From positions 1 through 51,538 of the forward strand of contig JAEHGL010000003.1 of NCBI GenBank assembly GCA_019248485.1: 51,538 nucleotides of DNA, given 5' to 3'. Source of the stretch: Candidatus Komeilibacteria bacterium S5_K13 (GTDB taxonomy: Bacteria > Patescibacteriota > Patescibacteriia > UBA1558 > S5-K13). Of this stretch, positions 31,104-40,300 are shown piece after piece. The stretch's first letter is position 1. Every line of letters starts with the position of its first letter. A program made the position numbers and the translations under genes. The notes beneath the pieces were generated by a model that searched no databases, was not told where the DNA came from, and saw nothing but the letters and a program-made list of their open reading frames with translations.

Positions 31104-31160
31104 AAAATTAAAATATAAGTGATTATTGGCTTATTTTACTATATTTAGAAATAAAATCAA

Positions 31161-31319
31161 CTAAAACAACAATGATCTAATATACTCAAAAACGCCTCTA
31201 TCTGGTCTTTTTGCATTTCTTGAAATAACCCTTGTTCTATTTCTCATTTCTTGCTTCATCCAATCAAAGTTTTGACACCTTGAATAATTTAGCATTTGTT
31301 TTGTTTCATTTTTTTTCAT
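31161..31319 (-). CDS. Small hypothetical protein (52 aa), below the ORF-track cutoff
   Basis: Manual translation MKKNETKQMLNYSRCQNFDWMKQEMRNRTRVISRNAKRPDRGVFEYIRSLLF; it fills the merR-ileS gap on the operon strand. Confidence 0.5.
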   Translation of the reverse strand: MKKNETKQMLNYSRCQNFDWMKQEMRNRTRVISRNAKRPDRGVFEYIRSLLF

Positions 31320-31321
31320 AC

Positions 31322-31385
31322 GTTTAGTGTTTAGTGTTTAGTATTTAGTATTTAGTGTTTAGATCGATTCTAAATTCTAATTACC
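31322..31385. repeat. 7-bp tandem repeat TTTAGT(G/A) x about 6 with inverted attctaa arm
   Basis: gtttagtgtttagtgtttagtatttagtatttagtgtttag, then attctaaattctaa. Confidence 0.85.
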
Positions 31386-31400
31386 AAAAACCAAAATCTA

Positions 31401-31628
31401 TTATTTATTTTTAAAATGACTTTTTATTTCTTGTATTGTCCATCTTTTTTGACTTTGCAATTTTTCTATTTCTTTGACTTTTTGAAGGGCTTTATTTTTT
31501 TCATACAAACGATACCCGCCTTGAGTATATGAGTCGGGCTTTAATAATCCCATCTGTGTATAAAAATGAATGGTCGAAGGTAACCTATTTAATTCAACTG
31601 CTAGCTCTCCTATTTTTAATAAGCTCAT
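31401..31628 (-). CDS. MerR-family HTH transcriptional regulator (DNA-binding domain only)
   Basis: LKIGELA...STIHFYTQMGLL.P...TQGGYRLY...IEKLQ...WTIQEIK. Confidence 0.9.
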   Translation of the reverse strand: MSLLKIGELAVELNRLPSTIHFYTQMGLLKPDSYTQGGYRLYEKNKALQKVKEIEKLQSQKRWTIQEIKSHFKNK

Positions 31629-31729
31629 ATATTAAAATAAACATTTATAAAAGTAGATCCTGAACAAAGTTGAAGGATCGATGATAATCTATCAATTTCA
31701 GTTGCAAGTTCTCCAATCTTTAATAACAT
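31625..31729 (-). pseudogene. Truncated duplicate of the merR N-terminus (34-aa upstream ORF)
   Basis: MLLKIGELATEIDRLSS vs MSLLKIGELAVELNRLPS (12/16 identical); similarity ends at a gatcct...aggatc palindrome; the TGA overlaps the merR ATG. Confidence 0.6.
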
Positions 31730-31845
31730 GTGGTTAGCGGATCAGCTACGTAGTGAGAAACTGCATAGCTTTAATATTTATTTATTTAACTGAGCAACTA
31801 AGCAGCCAAGTGGCTAACCACTTTTCCACAGTCCTCTCTGTATTA

Positions 31846-31874
31846 ATTATATATTAAATTTTACTAAGTGTGAA
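31846..31874 (-). promoter_or_regulatory. Sigma70 promoter upstream of the merR locus
   Basis: Minus strand TTCACA, 17-nt spacer, TATAAT. Confidence 0.6.
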
Positions 31875-31924
31875 GTATAGAGCGTCACTTCATACTTCAT
31901 AGTTTAGTATAAATTAAAATATCA

Positions 31925-31958
31925 CCCCTCACCCTACCCTCTCCCAAAGCGGGAGAGG
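31925..31958 (+). repeat. C-rich REP-like palindrome, solo copy A
   Basis: cccctcaccctaccctctccc-aaagc-gggagagg; the first 24 nt are identical to the copy at 36769. Confidence 0.85.
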
Positions 31959-31994
31959 AAAAAATGCTTTGATATTTTTTAATTTTAAAGAAAC

Positions 31995-32027
31995 AAAAAA
32001 CCCAGCTCTAAGATAGAACTGGGTTTT
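31995..32027 (-). terminator. Rho-independent terminator
   Basis: aaaacccag/ctgggtttt stem with a flanking A-run, directly downstream of 32042-32560. Confidence 0.75.
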
Positions 32028-32041
32028 GTAAAAAGTAAACT

Positions 32042-32672: not shown

Positions 32673-32763
32673 AAATACTAATACGAATGTGTATATACAA
32701 ATATACCCGTCTCGCGTCGGCGAGCCGAGGCGGACGAATGATGCTAATGATACTAATACGAAT
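32673..32763. repeat. ctaatacgaat-type degenerate tandem repeat with a nested GC-rich hairpin
   Basis: atactaatacgaat occurs twice (near 32675 and 32750), around ccgtctcg...cgaggcgg (32707-32733). Confidence 0.65.
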
Positions 32764-32900
32764 GGAGGTTAGATGGTTAGGGTGGTTAGGGTGGTTAGAG
32801 TGGTTAGTGGGGTTAGAGTGGTTAGTGGGGTTAAAGTGGTTAGGGTGGCTGGGGTTTCTAACCTTTCTAACTTTTCTAACCTCACTAACCCTACCAGTCT
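32764..32900. repeat. 9-bp GGTTAG(G/A/T)NN array (about 10 units) followed by an inverted CTAAC arm (about 4 units)
   Basis: ggttag-type units at 32767, 32775, 32784, 32793, 32802, 32811, 32820, 32829, 32838 and 32847, then tttctaacc-type units. Confidence 0.9.
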
Positions 32901-35900: not shown

Positions 35901-36759
35901 TACTGTTTGTTCTCTGTTCTCCATAATTTCCAGTTCCATCCATTGACCAACAATAAGACAAACCACTATTTAAACTATGCTTTGCCCTTACACTATCCCA
36001 TTGAATAGAGCTTGTAACCTGAACGGTTGCTCCTGAATCATTGCTATCACATCCAATATCTTGATGGGTAAATGTATAAGACGCCCCACCGCTTGAATCT
36101 GTTGAACTAGCAATGCTCACATATTTGGTCACAACTGAAGCAACCATTGACGGCTCAACAAGCATCCAACCACCATCATTATTTGTCATATCACAATAAA
36201 CTTGTTGCTTATCTGAGAAGTCACCATTTGTAAAATCTACCCAATAATTTCCAGAACCACTTGAATTTCCATTTAATAAAATGGACCTGCAACTTAGCGC
36301 TGGAAAATCAGCTGTTCCTATTGTTGATTTTCCTGGCTGTGCCATAGGATTTCCATAATACATATATATGCCCGTTCCTGAAATTGGAATATTAGGCATC
36401 CTTACCCAAACTTCTATTTTTTCTGGCGCATCATCCTCTATCCAATATGAAAGCAAATTGCCCCTTAAATCTGTAAATCTCAAATCCCGTAAATCACTTT
36501 GAATTTTCCCAGATGAAATATCTTCTGATAAATCTAATTCTAAAGCCTTTACCTGAAAGTTGCTAAGAGCAGATCCGCCTGAGTTTTGAATTTCAATTGA
36601 TTTACGATAAAGCCACGTTTCGTCCCACCAAGAAGCTTCTGCACTTTTGTTTATGCGAAATAAATAAATCAGACCTATAACAATCATAATGCCTATGACT
36701 ATGGCTGAGATGTAGTATTTGTAATTTGTTTGTTTCATAGTTTCATAGTGCCCCCTCAT
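32899..36759 (-). CDS. Large surface protein: N-terminal TM/signal, DUF2341, fibrinogen-like domain, four LamG/concanavalin-A-like domains (start probably MKQT at 36738)
   Basis: WW...W.YR..I.I...D.RF....G..L.YW.E...YMYYGN (DUF2341); SCRSIL..G....G.YW...VYCDM...GGWMLV (fibrinogen-like); four Y.F.E..G..(A/V).D...F.G.IDE(V/L)KIY.Y...Q(V/I) repeats. Confidence 0.85.
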   Translation of the reverse strand: MRGHYETMKQTNYKYYISAIVIGIMIVIGLIYLFRINKSAEASWWDETWLYRKSIEIQNSGGSALSNFQVKALELDLSEDISSGKIQSDLRDLRFTDLRGNLLSYWIEDDAPEKIEVWVRMPNIPISGTGIYMYYGNPMAQPGKSTIGTADFPALSCRSILLNGNSSGSGNYWVDFTNGDFSDKQQVYCDMTNNDGGWMLVEPSMVASVVTKYVSIASSTDSSGGASYTFTHQDIGCDSNDSGATVQVTSSIQWDSVRAKHSLNSGLSYCWSMDGTGNYGEQRTNSNLQSFSVGTDVVQGCVLSCATSPFVIPPLTRCDKEPENFAIYNGTSERSFELISRRVNRTSLSGPAIGLSCNDLNMVSKIENIYIRENDLIFSNVSIGSFSSEEESLGPTAYYKFDEGSSEKVYDSSGHGFTGKINGPVGYSGKGIVRSALRFSGDERAEVIIPSSISNDYTHTISLWFNLQEIAEDGSALLDMDGRGSFIKIRRDSIDISYGDREEMVRRYHQKVDSGRWYNITLVKIPSGEQRDALKVYLDGKLLTKYDGDVRDMGASSEMYLGRRYRQGNFMSGLLDELKIYSYPRTASQVKADYVAGKSGVSSATGIGSALGVGSGEILTPPILYYNFNEGYGETAYNYVSTTNNGSIKATWTNDGKFGKALVFSGSNNYVDTDFSDNLSAGDFSASAWIKIPNGVSTSYVVAQSHAISPYASDWFFPFHSGGSIFWFRGVQLGTYSTINDGLWHHLMLVWDQSEANYSAYVDSKYIGISSTVSNYGGVGSVKIGARGDLATTFFTGSIDEVKIYNYALSQDQVKVDYNNGMAIVMGSTGTTTSASAEYCVPGDMSYCVSPSLEYKFEKKSGTVAYDTSGNGNDATISGATFARGKIGNAMSFDGINDSTTKTSSSGLVSSNGTISYWLYLPTKDISHTVFYIYETETTDYIRNYIASNNMIDLVIEDENVVKVYAYYDLDNLGDFTNKWLYFSWVQDGSSVKLYINGQLKTLSGTNSGTWWTSHLNSPITAKLGYGWGYFKGLIDDVKVYNYARTQSQVAWDYNNGAPIAHYKFDECSGATVHDESENLNNGTITIGAGGSQTALGICKNRVTNHAWYNGSVGKYNSGLNFDGTDDFVNCGNDTSLRMQDNFTVSVWVKFSGVSASNRYFIDRWDSASNKRVWAYIVRANQNYISLLISSNGSSVEYAEGTKTVNDNNFHHVSFVRSGQNVKLYVDGVLDVERTTAMGLLFNTDTALQIGQSRYDGQIDDVKIFNYALTQDQVKTLYSGGALNFN

Positions 36760-36768
36760 CCCCTATCT

Positions 36769-36804
36769 CCCCTCACCCTACCCTCTCCCAAATCAGGGAG
36801 AGGG
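36769..36804 (+). repeat. C-rich REP-like palindrome, copy B
   Basis: cccctcaccctaccctctccc-aaatca-gggagaggg (9-bp stem); preceded by a partial arm at 36751-36770. Confidence 0.88.
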
Positions 36805-36828
36805 AATAAGGAATAATTATTTATATTG

Positions 36829-36865
36829 CCTCATCCCCAACCCTTCTCCCAAAACGGGATAAGGG
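36829..36865 (+). repeat. C-rich REP-like palindrome, copy C
   Basis: cctcatccccaa-cccttctccc-aaaac-gggataaggg. Confidence 0.82.
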
Positions 36866-36873
36866 AGAATGCT

Positions 36874-37227
36874 CTATTTTTTTATTAATTTTTTTATTTT
36901 GATTTCTATTTTTTTCAAAACCGACTTTAAATCATATTCAATATCTTCACTATTAATTCTTATAAATTTAATTCCTAAATCCTCTATATTTTTTTGCCTT
37001 TCTGCATCTTCTTTTATTTGCCTCAAATGAACTGGACCATCTATTTCAATTGCTAAATTTAGTTCGCTACAATAAAAATCTATTATATAACCACTAATCA
37101 AATGTTGTCTTCTAAATTTCAAATTTAAAAATTGCTTAGCTCTTAAACCTTCCCATATCATAGCCTCTGATATTGTTGGCTTTTTTCTAAATTCTCGAGC
37201 TATATATATTTTTTCTTGCTTTGTCAT
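36874..37227 (-). CDS. DUF559 / Vsr-like (PD-(D/E)xK) endonuclease
   Basis: AREFRKKPT.SEA.IW..LR..QF...KFRRQH.I..YIIDFYC...LAIEIDG.VH...D.ER...G..FIRI. Confidence 0.92.
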   Translation of the reverse strand: MTKQEKIYIAREFRKKPTISEAMIWEGLRAKQFLNLKFRRQHLISGYIIDFYCSELNLAIEIDGPVHLRQIKEDAERQKNIEDLGIKFIRINSEDIEYDLKSVLKKIEIKIKKLIKK

Positions 37228-37239
37228 AATCGCAGTTCT

Positions 37240-37272
37240 CCCCTCACCCCACCCTCTCCCAAATCAGGGAGA
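37240..37272 (+). repeat. C-rich REP-like palindrome, copy D
   Basis: cccctcaccccaccctctcccaaatcagggaga; 32/33 nt identical to copy B. Confidence 0.88.
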
Positions 37273-37297
37273 AGAGCGTTTTATTATTACTGGACAT

Positions 37298-37340
37298 CCT
37301 CCCCTCTCCATTTACTGATGGAGAGGGGTTGGGGGTGAGG
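37298..37340 (-). repeat. C-rich REP-like palindrome, copy E (inverted orientation)
   Basis: Reverse complement cctcacccccaacccctctccatcagtaaatggagaggggagg; 11-bp stem; 19/21 match to the copy C arm. Confidence 0.85.
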
Positions 37341-37344
37341 AAAA

Positions 37345-40300
37345 TTAGTTATTATTTTTATTACTATTTCCGCTTGCTAAATCTCTTCTATAAACATATT
37401 CTACTGTAATCGTAAGCTGTGATGGGTCTTCACTTTCTTCTCCTCCGCTCGACACCTGAGTTACTGTCACATGCATTCCGTCTTCACTTGTTAGATTTAT
37501 ATTTAAATTATCTGACTCTATATTTGCATAACCATTTGAACAGTTTCCACCTGATATTGTTGCAAGCTCGCTATTGTTTTTGTCCTCTAATCGAAGCGAT
37601 ATGCTTCCCCCATCACCACATTTATACTGTGCTTTGAGTTTCAAAATCTTGATATCCTCTGCAGGTCTCCACGAGTTTTCACCATTTCCCCAAACGCGAG
37701 TATCAACACGTGGCACGTCAACATAAGCAGTTATAGTATCTCTTACTGCTGAGTCAGGCAATATATATGCGACTCCTTCTACATTTAAATCTACTGTATC
37801 TCCAGTTTTTCCAACCTGCAACTTGTTTCCATTTGCTGAGATTACACCGTCTGAGCTAAACATAAGTTCTGCAATACCAGATGGCGTTCCACTTGCATTG
37901 AGCGATGGTGAGATTACAACTCTTCCAAAAAAGTTCGCAGAGACGTTATCATCAGTCGCGACGACTGTCAAAGTGGTTGATGAAATATTTTGTGACATTG
38001 AAAAACTATCAAGAGCAACGTTTTGTGGGCTCATCAAAATATTTCCATTTCCGTTTACTGACATAATTCTCTGACCACCATTTTGAAGTACCCATAGGTC
38101 ATCATACTGGGCAACATTTCTATTGAAATCATTTAGGACAAGTGCATTTGACCCTACAACTTTTCCATAATTATCATGACTTGTTGTAAGTTTGGTGCCA
38201 TTTCCTAAATCAAAGCTTAAATTATTTCCTGAGTATAAATTATATGAAGATGTGATAAGTGAAACTGCATTTGTTGTATCAACATATTCTGATGAATTTA
38301 AAATATCTCCAGTAAGTGCTGTAGTTTTAATATCAGAATAATTTGAAGACAAACGAGAAGCAGAAATATCAATATGACTTAGCATTCTTGCAGAAGATGT
38401 TGCACTCCAATTTTCATCATACAAACTCCAATTTATAGCAATGTCAACATTTTTTGTTTCTATTGAGTTAAATTTCAAATCAACAAGTGACGCACTTGAT
38501 GTTGACCCAGTTGCTAAATTTTCATTATCAAATCCTGAAACAATCTTTATAGCTGATGAGCTTGCAGTAGCCATTGCAAAATCTGATTTATTATAATCTA
38601 TTAATACATTTGTTAGGTCAAAACTAAATTTATCAGAGTCAGTGCTTGACGCAGTAATTGTAATTACTTCTTGACCAATTTCATCGCCATAATTTGCAAT
38701 TGTCATATTTGAAACAGATGATTTGCTAGATGCTATTAATGCTGAATGATTAATCTGAGTAATTCTTGTATTTTCACGACCCGATCCAACGATATCAACA
38801 TAAGGTTTGAGAATAACTTGTTCATTATATATCCCTGGCTTTACAGTAATAAGCCAACGATTGTTTGCGCTGTTTAATTTTATCTTTGATAATGCCTCGC
38901 TAATACTTGTATAATCTCCGCCCTGTTTTGCAACTACAACTTCATTTTGTCTATCATTTGAAATAGCAAGTATTGAAGATTCATTTGTCTTTGCAACTGA
39001 TAATAAAACTTTGTTCTCATCACTTCTAATACTTGTTACAAGAATCTCACCATTTGAATCTATGTAAATATAATTTTCAACATTTGGTAAAAGCATAACT
39101 TGTCTAGCTGGTTTTGTTGAAACATAAACTCCATTTATATAAGCTTCGCCAGATGACAATGTTGCTACAAGTGAATTTTGAGTACTTGTTGATTCCAACA
39201 TAAATCCATCAATTACATAATGAGCAAGTTTGTTTCCATTTCCTGTGAAATCAATAAATGTTCCAAGATTTTCAAAGGTTTCAAATTTATCATTGGTGCT
39301 TAATAATTTTCCATTTTCACCAATATTTATATCAACTAATAATCCTTTGAAAATATTACCACTTGATGTAATGATTCCGTTTAGAGTTGCAATAGCTTGA
39401 CCCGAGACATTTTGGATATTATTGTTCATCACAATCATATCGTTGTCGGATGCAAAATTTACAATACCTTGATTCATTGAACCAATAAATTCATTTTCTG
39501 AAATTACAGGATTAATATTACTTGCTGTTGTATTTTCAATATTTATTCCCGTAGCACCACTCACCTCAGATATTATTCTATTGTTGTTTATCACTGGACT
39601 TGATCCTAAAATAGATACGACTGAGACATTGCTTACTGAGCCAGTTGACTTTAGAGAACAATTTTCAATTCTTGAATTGTTTGCACCTATTACTGCTGGT
39701 GCACTACTGCCAATAATTATTGTATTAGAACTATTTTCACAAACTACATCAACATAAGGCTTTAGAGTAATTGTTTCACTATATTCACCAGCTTTTATAT
39801 TTATTACATATCTCTTTGATTCACTACTGTCTGTAATTGATGACATAGCGCTTAAAATATTTTCAAAGTCTCCGCCTGATTTTGCGACTTCTATTGTTAT
39901 GCCATGATTATTGAAATATCCAATTTGAACACTAATTGCAATTTGATCATGACCACCTTCCATATCTTCCATTGCGATACCAATAACTCCTGCACCCAGC
40001 TTACTTGCTTTTTGTGCTTTTCCAATTTCATTTGAAGTAGTCAAATAATCACCCTTCTTGATAAGTCCATTTGAAGCTGTGACATTTACAAGACTTGCTC
40101 CCATTGTAACTATTGGCTTACCAGTCTCACTATTTCCAGAAATAAATGCAGGCTTCTCTGCTATTATTCCCAAAATATTTGAACTATTTGCGCGGTCAGA
40201 AAGTTTTACACTATTGCTATCACCGAGAACAACTACATCACCATACTCAAAGTTTGAGTCCGCAAGTTCCATCATCTGGGCATAACCTGAATTTGATGAT

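Follow-up and report, generated by a model that had tools for sequence, protein, structure and literature searches.

What is a lone nuclease gene doing between hairpin-forming palindromes, and do gene and repeats belong to one genetic element? The question is raised by a locus on contig JAEHGL010000003.1 of Candidatus Komeilibacteria bacterium S5_K13 (assembly GCA_019248485.1), in a stretch of 51,538 nt that was analysed at its full length and is called the window here. A gene for a DUF559 nuclease is surrounded there by repeat units, each consisting of a C-rich tail and a hairpin, and the original prediction for this DNA had compared the layout with repetitive extragenic palindromic (REP) sequences and proposed that the nuclease mobilises or maintains the palindromes. 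Our analysis revealed that the gene and its units form a discrete, heritable cassette of ~0.5 kb with inverted ends, in which the 9-mer tail CCCTCACCC lies outside and the hairpin CCCTCTCCC-loop-GGGAGAGGG inside. The cassette occurs across bacterial phyla in two forms, either free-standing between genes with its own start codon, as in the window, or in frame inside host genes. Judged by their sequence, the window units are members of the intrastrand triplex family known from E. coli as BoxC, PIT or TM_ECO. The features of the locus are as follows (positions in the window).

37298-37343, minus strand: unit E, upstream end of the cassette; in gene direction the C-rich tail CCTCACCCCC comes first and an 11-bp hairpin follows, so that the tail points outward.
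37237-37276, plus strand: unit D, of B-type, between unit E and the start codon; in gene direction a hairpin, then a G-rich tail.
36874-37227, minus strand: open reading frame (ORF) of the DUF559 nuclease (YcjD-like, Vsr-fold PD-(D/E)xK) with its own ATG; 117 aa, Pfam PF04480.
36827-36870, plus strand: unit C, the "T-variant", downstream end of the cassette; tail CCTCATCCCC, arms CCCTTCTCCC/GGGATAAGGG.
36766-36806, plus strand: unit B, of B-type, 24 nt past unit C; read on the minus strand, the LamG-protein gene starts shortly after its G-rich tail.
31923-31960, plus strand: solo unit of B-type, intergenic, downstream of a 172-aa gene, with an exact 21-mer match.

All units share one plan, a C-rich tail of 9-10 nt (CCCCTCACCC or CCTCAYCCCC) followed after 2-4 nt by a hairpin with the arms CCCTCTCCC/GGGAGAGGG or close variants. 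On the minus strand the order from 5' to 3' is unit E, a 24-nt spacer, unit D, the gene, unit C, another 24-nt spacer and unit B; in gene direction E runs from tail to hairpin, and D, C and B run from hairpin to tail. The G-rich tail of D stops 9 nt before the ATG, and C starts ~7 nt past the stop codon. Units B (36766-36801) and D (37237-37272) are direct copies with 97% identity over 36 nt, units C (36826-36849) and E (37320-37343) share an inverted 24-nt match that is 88% complementary, and D and E form a convergent doublet, ~24 nt apart, with tails outward. The predicted layout, namely direct B and D, inverted C and E, the D-E doublet and the solo copy, was thus recovered in full. The DUF559 ORF is the sole real gene in region 36700-37400 according to ORF and Pfam analysis. 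The absence of an adjoining transposase or integrase, likewise predicted, agreed with the annotated neighbours (a giant surface protein, a DUF2341/LamG protein, a MerR-like ORF, a tRNA synthetase and RecO), none of which is of either kind. The flanked gene had no Y1_Tnp/RAYT match in Pfam, and, with DUF559 as the only ORF, no DDE, HUH, serine or tyrosine transposase is present; terminal inverted repeats are a feature that the cassette has in common with insertion sequences (IS) and miniature inverted-repeat transposable elements (MITE), but no transposase like that of the former is encoded here.

Scanning of the 51.5-kb window with a detector for tail plus hairpin yielded exactly five units (31927-31958, 36771-36804, 36829-36865 and 37242-37274 on the plus strand, 37301-37340 on the minus strand). 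The 21-mer CCCCTCACCCYACCCTCTCCC, with at most three mismatches allowed, matched at 31925, 36769 and 37240, and had no match in 100 dinucleotide-preserving shuffles. In single-strand folding with ViennaRNA, which covers hairpins and not triplexes, four of the five hairpins were better than all 200 shuffles (z -3.0 to -3.6; hairpin of E: dG -12.6, z -3.5; hairpin of the solo unit: z -3.6), while the stem of D was weakened (z -1.0). When the E-D doublet was folded, the C-rich tail of E paired with the G-rich tail of D and both hairpins were enclosed. Three units (B, D and the solo unit) belong to one, nearly identical subtype; E with its 11-bp stem and C with its T-variant sequence are each distinct. 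E, upstream, and C, downstream, are the most likely ends of the cassette itself. This assignment is supported by other contigs of run X1, a wastewater metagenome that is the single public run holding the window and is available as contigs only: on one contig a C-like unit is followed after 17 nt by an E-like unit, a doublet with no gene and with unrelated flanks, and at least three more contigs begin to match at unit C.

An apparent "skip" of the gene in run X1 was considered as an excision product and rejected, because it is another locus with a gene-less doublet. In the same run, contig depth rises about threefold and a contig breaks within window 35968-36051, inside the LamG-protein gene, which suggests another repeated segment. 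In hairpin-first units, the distance from the end of the G-rich tail (…GGGTGAGGGGA…) to the start codon is 6-12 nt for the DUF559 and LamG-protein genes, in the window (37228-37250 and 36738-36790) as well as in the closest relative, locus L001 (560-580 and 1030-1046); such a tail is a possible Shine-Dalgarno-like sequence. Scans for promoters and terminators near the cassette remained at chance level, with zero intrinsic terminators. No RNA family was detected in the window by Rfam at gathering thresholds and no tRNA by ARAGORN, so that a known structured RNA or a tRNA-linked island was dropped. An integron attC cassette, a group II intron and an IStron were also dropped, given that no integrase or reverse transcriptase was seen, that both ends carry inverted units and that cassettes are nested in frame.

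To determine whether units and gene are associated beyond the window, 86 homologous loci were analyzed, six from reference genomes and 80 from metagenomes, in which the relatives are 37-85% identical; they include metagenome-assembled genomes (MAGs) labelled deltaproteobacterium, Anaerolinea, Nomurabacteria and Giovannonibacteria. The loci were picked by similarity to the window protein, and the association described here refers to the YcjD-like clade and not to all of PF04480. MAFFT misaligned the 3' arm owing to variable loop lengths, and a covariance model was replaced by the explicit detector for tail plus hairpin. Hairpin units occurred at 4.33/kb within 200 nt of the gene and at 0.15/kb more than 500 nt away, and a stricter, oriented detector gave 2.70/kb near the gene and 0.127/kb far from it. 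Over all 86 loci the enrichment within 200-250 nt is 20- to 30-fold, which bears out the prediction that the repeats gather near DUF559 genes across genomes. A unit lies within 200 nt upstream in 59 of 80 loci and downstream in 53 of 78, where the hairpin starts at a median of -3 nt relative to the estimated end of the ORF. As the detectors are pattern-based, some of the ~20 loci without a detected unit surely hold diverged ones; the densities are per kb of contig, since metagenome contigs give no genome-wide unit counts.

The units are also consistently oriented. In 27 of the 32 loci with units on both sides, the upstream unit is tail-first and the downstream one hairpin-first, which makes them an inverted pair with tails outward. 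Many ORFs of the clade in databases read through into C-terminal "PLPSP...GEG" peptides, which are translated units. An exact-pattern scan of viral contigs found 92 units in 735 kb and only three DUF559 genes, all three with units at 36-252 nt; nearly every gene of the clade thus has units, and most units have no gene. Gene-less doublets with tails outward and 8-122 nt between the units account for 14 of the 23 F..R pairs in the viral contigs. Most units have one tail, and solo units with two make up ~3% of all. Downstream of the DUF559 gene of locus L084 (900-1800), two types of hairpin unit alternate in a tandem array whose period is ~100 nt.

The borders of the cassette were located in four related HsdM genes, in which the insert starts exactly at CCCTCACCC and ends at GGGTGAGGG(TG). 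Two sites are polymorphic. At the first, loci L021 and L034 are filled, L023 is empty, and L070 has a collapsed form that lacks the gene and reads tail-arm-loop-arm-tail; the second follows after ~50 codons and is filled in L023 and L070, empty in L034 and reduced to a degenerate remnant in L021. The terminal inverted repeats are ~35 nt long (CCCTCACCC..hairpin at one end, hairpin..GGGTGAGGG at the other). Ends are more similar within an element than between elements (mean identity 0.817 versus 0.747), a difference that was reached in none of 10,000 permutations. The window shares with L001, L009, L036, L046 and L056 a combination in which the 5' unit is normal and the 3' unit is a T-variant. 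This recurring asymmetry between left and right end indicates joint inheritance of gene and ends.

In 25 of 84 non-redundant loci the DUF559 frame is open for at least 300 nt on both sides, which holds for none of the 84 in each alternative frame. According to Pfam, the host genes encode eight HsdM, seven HsdR, two HsdS, three Eco57I/MmeI-like proteins and one N6_N4 methylase, and the others are LipB, a PurL-like protein with two cassettes, a TIR-FGE-sulfatase protein and an S-adenosylmethionine (SAM) methyltransferase. Restriction-modification genes thus hold 21 of the 25 nested cassettes, in all three type I subunits and at several positions (e.g., L021, L078, L086 and L026), and the inserts in LipB, the SAM methyltransferase and the FGE-sulfatase split the catalytic domain of the host. 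Nested copies mostly lack a Met of their own; a conserved "xYRGGFxFxGL" linker precedes them and unit-encoded peptides (PSPxPLPxGEG) form their borders. Read in this frame, the units would become stop-free Pro/Gly-rich linkers and the nuclease would be a segment of the host protein. Pfam detected no Hint/intein domain (E<=1e-5) in 20 nested ORFs. Solo units and doublets are translated in frame as well, with at least eight in the ORF of L026. As further cases, L078 has a gene-less doublet at an HsdR site where L083 and L060 hold the gene, and the PurL-like ORF of L047 (175-3516), with its two diverged DUF559 cassettes, contains in-frame arrays of unit-derived peptides (PLPEGEGLGVRVNPSTPTSASQP x6 plus ~18 SRSGVRV-like heptads).

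The window's own lineage shows the free-standing form. L001 (85% identity) has the same cassette and units between the C-terminus of a giant surface protein and the LamG-protein gene, with an extra partial unit in the region of D. Two MAG contigs encode an identical protein in the same context, and L009 (60% identity) has a broadly similar one, in that a large surface protein precedes the cassette and a LamG protein follows it. Other free-standing relatives have unrelated neighbours, namely DnaK ahead of them, GroEL and a ComM-like gene on either side, or TatD and RlmA on either side. Between the window and L001, the non-coding flanks are ~95% identical whereas synonymous sites differ by 36%; four differences were counted in 56 aligned nt that include unit E (one difference) and the adjoining spacer, and unit B is identical. 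Flanks this conserved beside such synonymous divergence indicate that the units, and even the spacers, are constrained or homogenised. The protein is likewise under purifying selection, as the ratio of nonsynonymous to synonymous substitution (dN/dS) against L001 is 0.14, with dS 0.50.

The window ORF matches PF04480 with an E-value of 5.5e-27 and 94.2 bits (cutoff 20.6) over profile positions 5-107 of 109. Residues D50, E61, D63 and H67, together with several N-terminal residues, are invariant across 41 homologues, and homology suggests a catalytic role for the four. Against PDB, the family profile found 3HRL, a Neisseria "endonuclease-like protein" (E 5e-27), and 3R3P, the catalytic domain of the group I intron homing endonuclease I-Bth0305I (E 2.8e-5), and it also matched the N-domains of PvuRts1I and AbaSI. 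The AlphaFold2 model of the nuclease (pLDDT 87.9) gave the same picture in Foldseek, with matches to 3HRL (TM score 0.72/0.89), 3R3P (TM score 0.62/0.73), AbaSI/PvuRts1I and Vsr (1CW0). The model thus points to the restriction-endonuclease-like fold common to solved DUF559/Vsr-like members, and the product appears to be an active-looking YcjD-type DUF559 nuclease with the fold of Vsr and the EDxHD homing endonucleases. The model (m398a023c1e7f) also matched several large mitoribosomal proteins of Toxoplasma and Tetrahymena (Foldseek probability ~1.0, TM score 0.55-0.68), which would fit a DUF559-like domain in those proteins; according to one paper, such domains are said to occur in Plasmodium proteins too.

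The repeat itself has been described. The TM_ECO pattern is CCCTCNCCC N3-6 GGGNGAGGG N3 GGGNGAGGG and equals the BoxC repeat of E. coli and the older "PIT" elements (Holder et al., 2015, PMC4666352, where earlier work on the family by Bachellier et al. and Hoyne et al. is cited). That study counted 3610 occurrences across 262 proteobacterial genomes, dispersed as single copies or inverted pairs that mark variable regions, with most E. coli units at conserved loci; it showed that a single strand of the E. coli unit forms an intrastrand triplex in vitro, and it found no common function among flanking genes, its main text containing neither "endonuclease" nor "DUF559" (PMC4666352). The origin and function of the repeats were left unexplained there (PMC4666352). 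Unit B fits the TM_ECO pattern only when the second spacer is relaxed from 3 to 2 nt, and the other four window units are diverged variants with the same three-block plan. The sequence family, CCCTCNCCC-loop-GGGNGAGGG-spacer-GGGNGAGGG, is the same in both; different here are the role of the units as the two ends of a gene cassette, the low-GC Patescibacteria-type genome, and the existence of subtypes whose stems are longer or whose tail and arms have an additional T/A. The description of the repeats as REP-like was therefore apt for the layout, which parallels that of REP sequences and their transposases and includes gene-less, REPIN-like doublets, but not for the repeat, which is this published family.

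The tail CCCTCACCC mirrors the arm CCCTCTCCC with one conserved A, as expected of a three-block plan compatible with a triplex. Tail and both arms also covary. The tail CCTCAT accompanies the arms CTTCTC/GAGAAG in 16 of 17 distinct units, and the tail CCTCAC accompanies those arms in one of 220 (Fisher p 1e-22, uncorrected for ancestry), with examples at many loci (e.g., window 36829-36865, L001 942-981 and L009 3375-3414). The covariation preserves the mirror symmetry that a triplex needs; as there are two types only, it may reflect shared ancestry.

The link between gene and units reaches E. coli, where YcjD is 34% identical to the window protein over 98 residues. In E. coli K-12, ycjD is the only DUF559 gene; it ends inside a degenerate hairpin (…CCCTCTCCC TGA aaga GCGAGGGGG), and the unit TM#9 lies 168 nt downstream in canonical orientation. 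With 23 units in 4.6 Mb and a single ycjD, this proximity is unlikely to be due to chance. In phylogroups A, B1 and C and two further sequence types the gene lies between sapF and fabI, a gap that in other lineages holds the eefRABCD operon (PMC12817139). Among 5426 E. coli genomes searched with a composite query, 17-32 matching places were found in genomes with ycjD and 2-23 in those without it (2-4 units in the B2 type, 15-23 in O157 and others). The correlation between unit count and ycjD is partial and confounded by phylogroup, and is not counted as support. Two candidates for a filled/empty unit junction were rejected, tauD-hemB because the whole intergenic region is replaced and zntA-tusA because the variation is an unrelated REP insertion. 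Between ycjD and TM#9 (L089, E. coli K-12 1351240-1351410) there is a duplicated, diverged copy of the last ~50 nt of ycjD, which looks like a remnant of a second cassette end or a gene conversion tract, and a perfect 16-bp inverted repeat overlaps the start of ycjD.

Taken as a whole, the locus is best read as a selfish nuclease-plus-repeat cassette that spreads by homing-like gene conversion and persists in the window's lineage as an old E-gene-C copy, a reading to which we assign a probability of about 0.5. Cleavage specificity, route of spread and action in trans are what we infer here, as follows. The nuclease would nick or cut the DNA at or beside a unit, whose hairpin or triplex-prone structure it may recognise, and host recombination would repair the break from another copy, so that a cassette or a unit is copied in, by homing-like gene conversion and not by transposase chemistry. 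The far more numerous gene-less units and tails-outward doublets would be non-autonomous relatives or remnants. In the window, E-gene-C would be old, vertically inherited and still under selection, and D, B and the solo unit would be later copies of the subtype that proliferates in this genome, landed ~24 nt from existing units. The homing-endonuclease-like route in particular is tentative, and we rate it somewhat below an even chance; it is favoured because the protein lineage includes a proven homing endonuclease (I-Bth0305I), because the units offer ~35 nt of homology on each side, and because no PD-(D/E)xK nuclease is known to perform strand transfer on its own (TnsA needs TnsB).

Several results weigh against this reading. 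No target-site duplication was seen at the HsdM sites, where filled and empty hosts are only ~70% identical, and the sole E. coli locus compared with and without a unit is a replaced intergenic region that carries no information on such duplications. Near-identical cassettes in different contexts were absent from an all-versus-all blastn of 88 loci, so recent movement was not caught. Two-tailed solo units, which would be the best homing targets, being ~3% of units, simple homing into solos cannot explain how the units spread. E. coli strains without ycjD retain up to 23 units, the restriction-modification bias of the nested copies could reflect a recruited function instead, and the association, resting on loci chosen by similarity, may belong to one DUF559 clade only. 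The window cassette is moreover syntenically fixed in L001, L009 and the MAG contigs, with no empty allele found among them; empty sites, for which the original prediction had proposed a search, do exist, together with filled and collapsed ones, in orthologous HsdM genes. Of its nuclease-plus-palindrome system, the association and the co-inheritance of ends and gene held up. Cleavage of the hairpins and mobilisation of solo units in trans found no support (E. coli strains without ycjD still have 15-23 units, although those of the B2 type have only 2-4), nor did its suggestion of promoted recombination in the neighbouring adhesin-like genes. The interpretation as a whole was partly supported.

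A recruited function is a serious rival, on account of the 21 of 25 nested copies in restriction-modification genes, even if we consider it unlikely on balance. DUF559 would then be an accessory nuclease or repair module, concerned for example with restriction-modification complexes or with triplex- or hairpin-prone DNA, its units would be linkers or expression signals, and mobility would be ancient. The spread of nested copies over all three type I subunits fits this explanation, as do purifying selection on protein and flanks where the cassette is fixed, the G-rich tail 6-12 nt before start codons with its resemblance to a ribosome-binding site, and a fold family that includes the repair enzyme Vsr. 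However, insert positions vary among orthologues and catalytic domains are split, which looks like tolerated parasitism, and linkers do not explain why the ends are conserved at the nucleotide level across phyla, including in non-coding, free-standing copies. TM_ECO units also lacked promoter or terminator activity, according to an earlier study as cited in PMC4666352.

RAYT is the REP-associated tyrosine transposase, and in an explanation modelled on it, which we also hold to be improbable, DUF559 would cut the hairpin units and move or copy them in trans, the flanking units being recognition sites and the solos products. Units far outnumber genes (23:1 in E. coli K-12, 92:3 in the viral contigs), inverted units lie on both sides of the gene, as with RAYT genes, REPIN-like doublets with tails outward are frequent and fold into a single structure, the newer B-type units of the window lie at a fixed ~24 nt from older ones, and E. 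coli of the B2 type without ycjD have only 2-4 units, all of which speaks for such a mechanism. Against it stands established knowledge on PD-(D/E)xK enzymes, for which strand transfer without a partner such as TnsB is not known, and the in-frame nesting of the gene in host genes is not explained. O157 and other E. coli without ycjD keep 15-23 units, and most E. coli units are at conserved loci (PMC4666352). Coincidence, or a generic hotspot in which GC-rich hairpins accumulate in small intergenic gaps or around horizontally acquired small genes, DUF559 being one of these, is very improbable: units do occur beside many unrelated genes and in arrays, but the local enrichment is 20- to 30-fold over other genes and gaps of the same contigs, the inverted orientation is consistent, the ends travel with the gene into coding sequence in frame, and the same link extends from Patescibacteria to E. 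coli.

The preferred reading, a selfish cassette with homing-like spread, has partial counterparts among known systems. Like REP/REPIN-RAYT, it comprises a single-copy enzyme gene flanked by inverted hairpin repeats that are far more abundant elsewhere, a unit made of a short conserved motif beside a hairpin, and doublets that fold as one long hairpin; it differs in its Vsr-fold PD-(D/E)xK enzyme, where RAYT is an HUH (IS200-like) tyrosine transposase, in cassettes that can lie in frame inside genes, and in a triplex-capable repeat, for which action in trans would be an assumption. Rickettsia palindromic elements (RPE), which Ogata and colleagues reportedly described in 2000 as in-frame palindromic repeats in protein-coding genes, tolerated as peptide inserts, resemble the solo units and doublets that are inserted in frame and translated here, but RPEs encode no protein, whereas the present family has a nuclease-coding version and spans many phyla. 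With Vsr-like homing endonucleases (I-Bth0305I, PMC3239194; "fractured genes", PMC2677866), the cassette shares sequence and fold (E 2.8e-5; TM score 0.62-0.73) and the life of a small selfish nuclease inside conserved genes with presence/absence polymorphism (HsdM sites; ycjD/eef). In contrast to them, no group I intron was found in the window by Rfam and no intein in the nested ORFs by Pfam (Hint), and the ends are a dispersed repeat at many unrelated sites, not unique exon sequence. A close parallel to nesting is ShiLan (PMC11855218), a stop-free in-frame insertion with an endonuclease inside the gene for a phage DNA methylase, neither intron nor intein, for which homing was proposed. There the HNH endonuclease lies in another frame with its own start and stop and no dispersed repeat ends are present (PMC11855218), whereas DUF559 is in the host frame here.

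The coupling of a known repeat with DUF559 as an inverted-end cassette, and its in-frame life inside genes, appear to be new; no earlier report of a link between DUF559 and the repeat was found in the literature covered, which leaves out many subscription papers. The BoxC/PIT/TM_ECO repeats have been known for about three decades. They may be the non-autonomous partners of a widespread, unrecognised selfish cassette that also explains DUF559/YcjD, acting through nuclease-induced recombination, living in frame without splicing and preferring restriction-modification genes, a proposal that we consider possible though a little short of even odds. If it is true, it gives a first functional context to DUF559, a very common domain that includes the uncharacterised E. 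coli K-12 gene ycjD, and a candidate protein partner to a repeat family linked to genome instability in E. coli. It would also describe a selfish design without transposase, intron or intein splicing, in which a nuclease is combined with triplex-prone inverted ends that turn into stop-free linkers. The bias of nested copies to restriction-modification genes suggests that two kinds of selfish DNA interact in a way still unexplored, and these hypotheses are directly testable in E. coli.

Some further features were observed in the window around the solo unit and the LamG-protein gene. The solo unit sits past a terminator-like hairpin of the 172-aa gene, in a gap of ~940 nt between long ORFs (31104-32041), for which the MAG annotation gives a 75-aa MerR-type ORF and a 52-aa ORF. 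Amid AT-rich intergenic DNA, 32705-32735 is a lone GC-rich stretch (…CCCGTCTCGCGTCGGCGAGCCGAGGCGGACG…). Directly downstream of the stop of the LamG-protein gene (32899), a 9-nt tandem array of GGTTAGAGT (9.2 copies) was found at 32767-32848 and a roughly complementary 9-nt array of TTTCTAACC (four copies) at 32855-32890; together the two arrays (32767-32890) make up a long inverted repeat that is imperfect and composed of short, telomere-like units.

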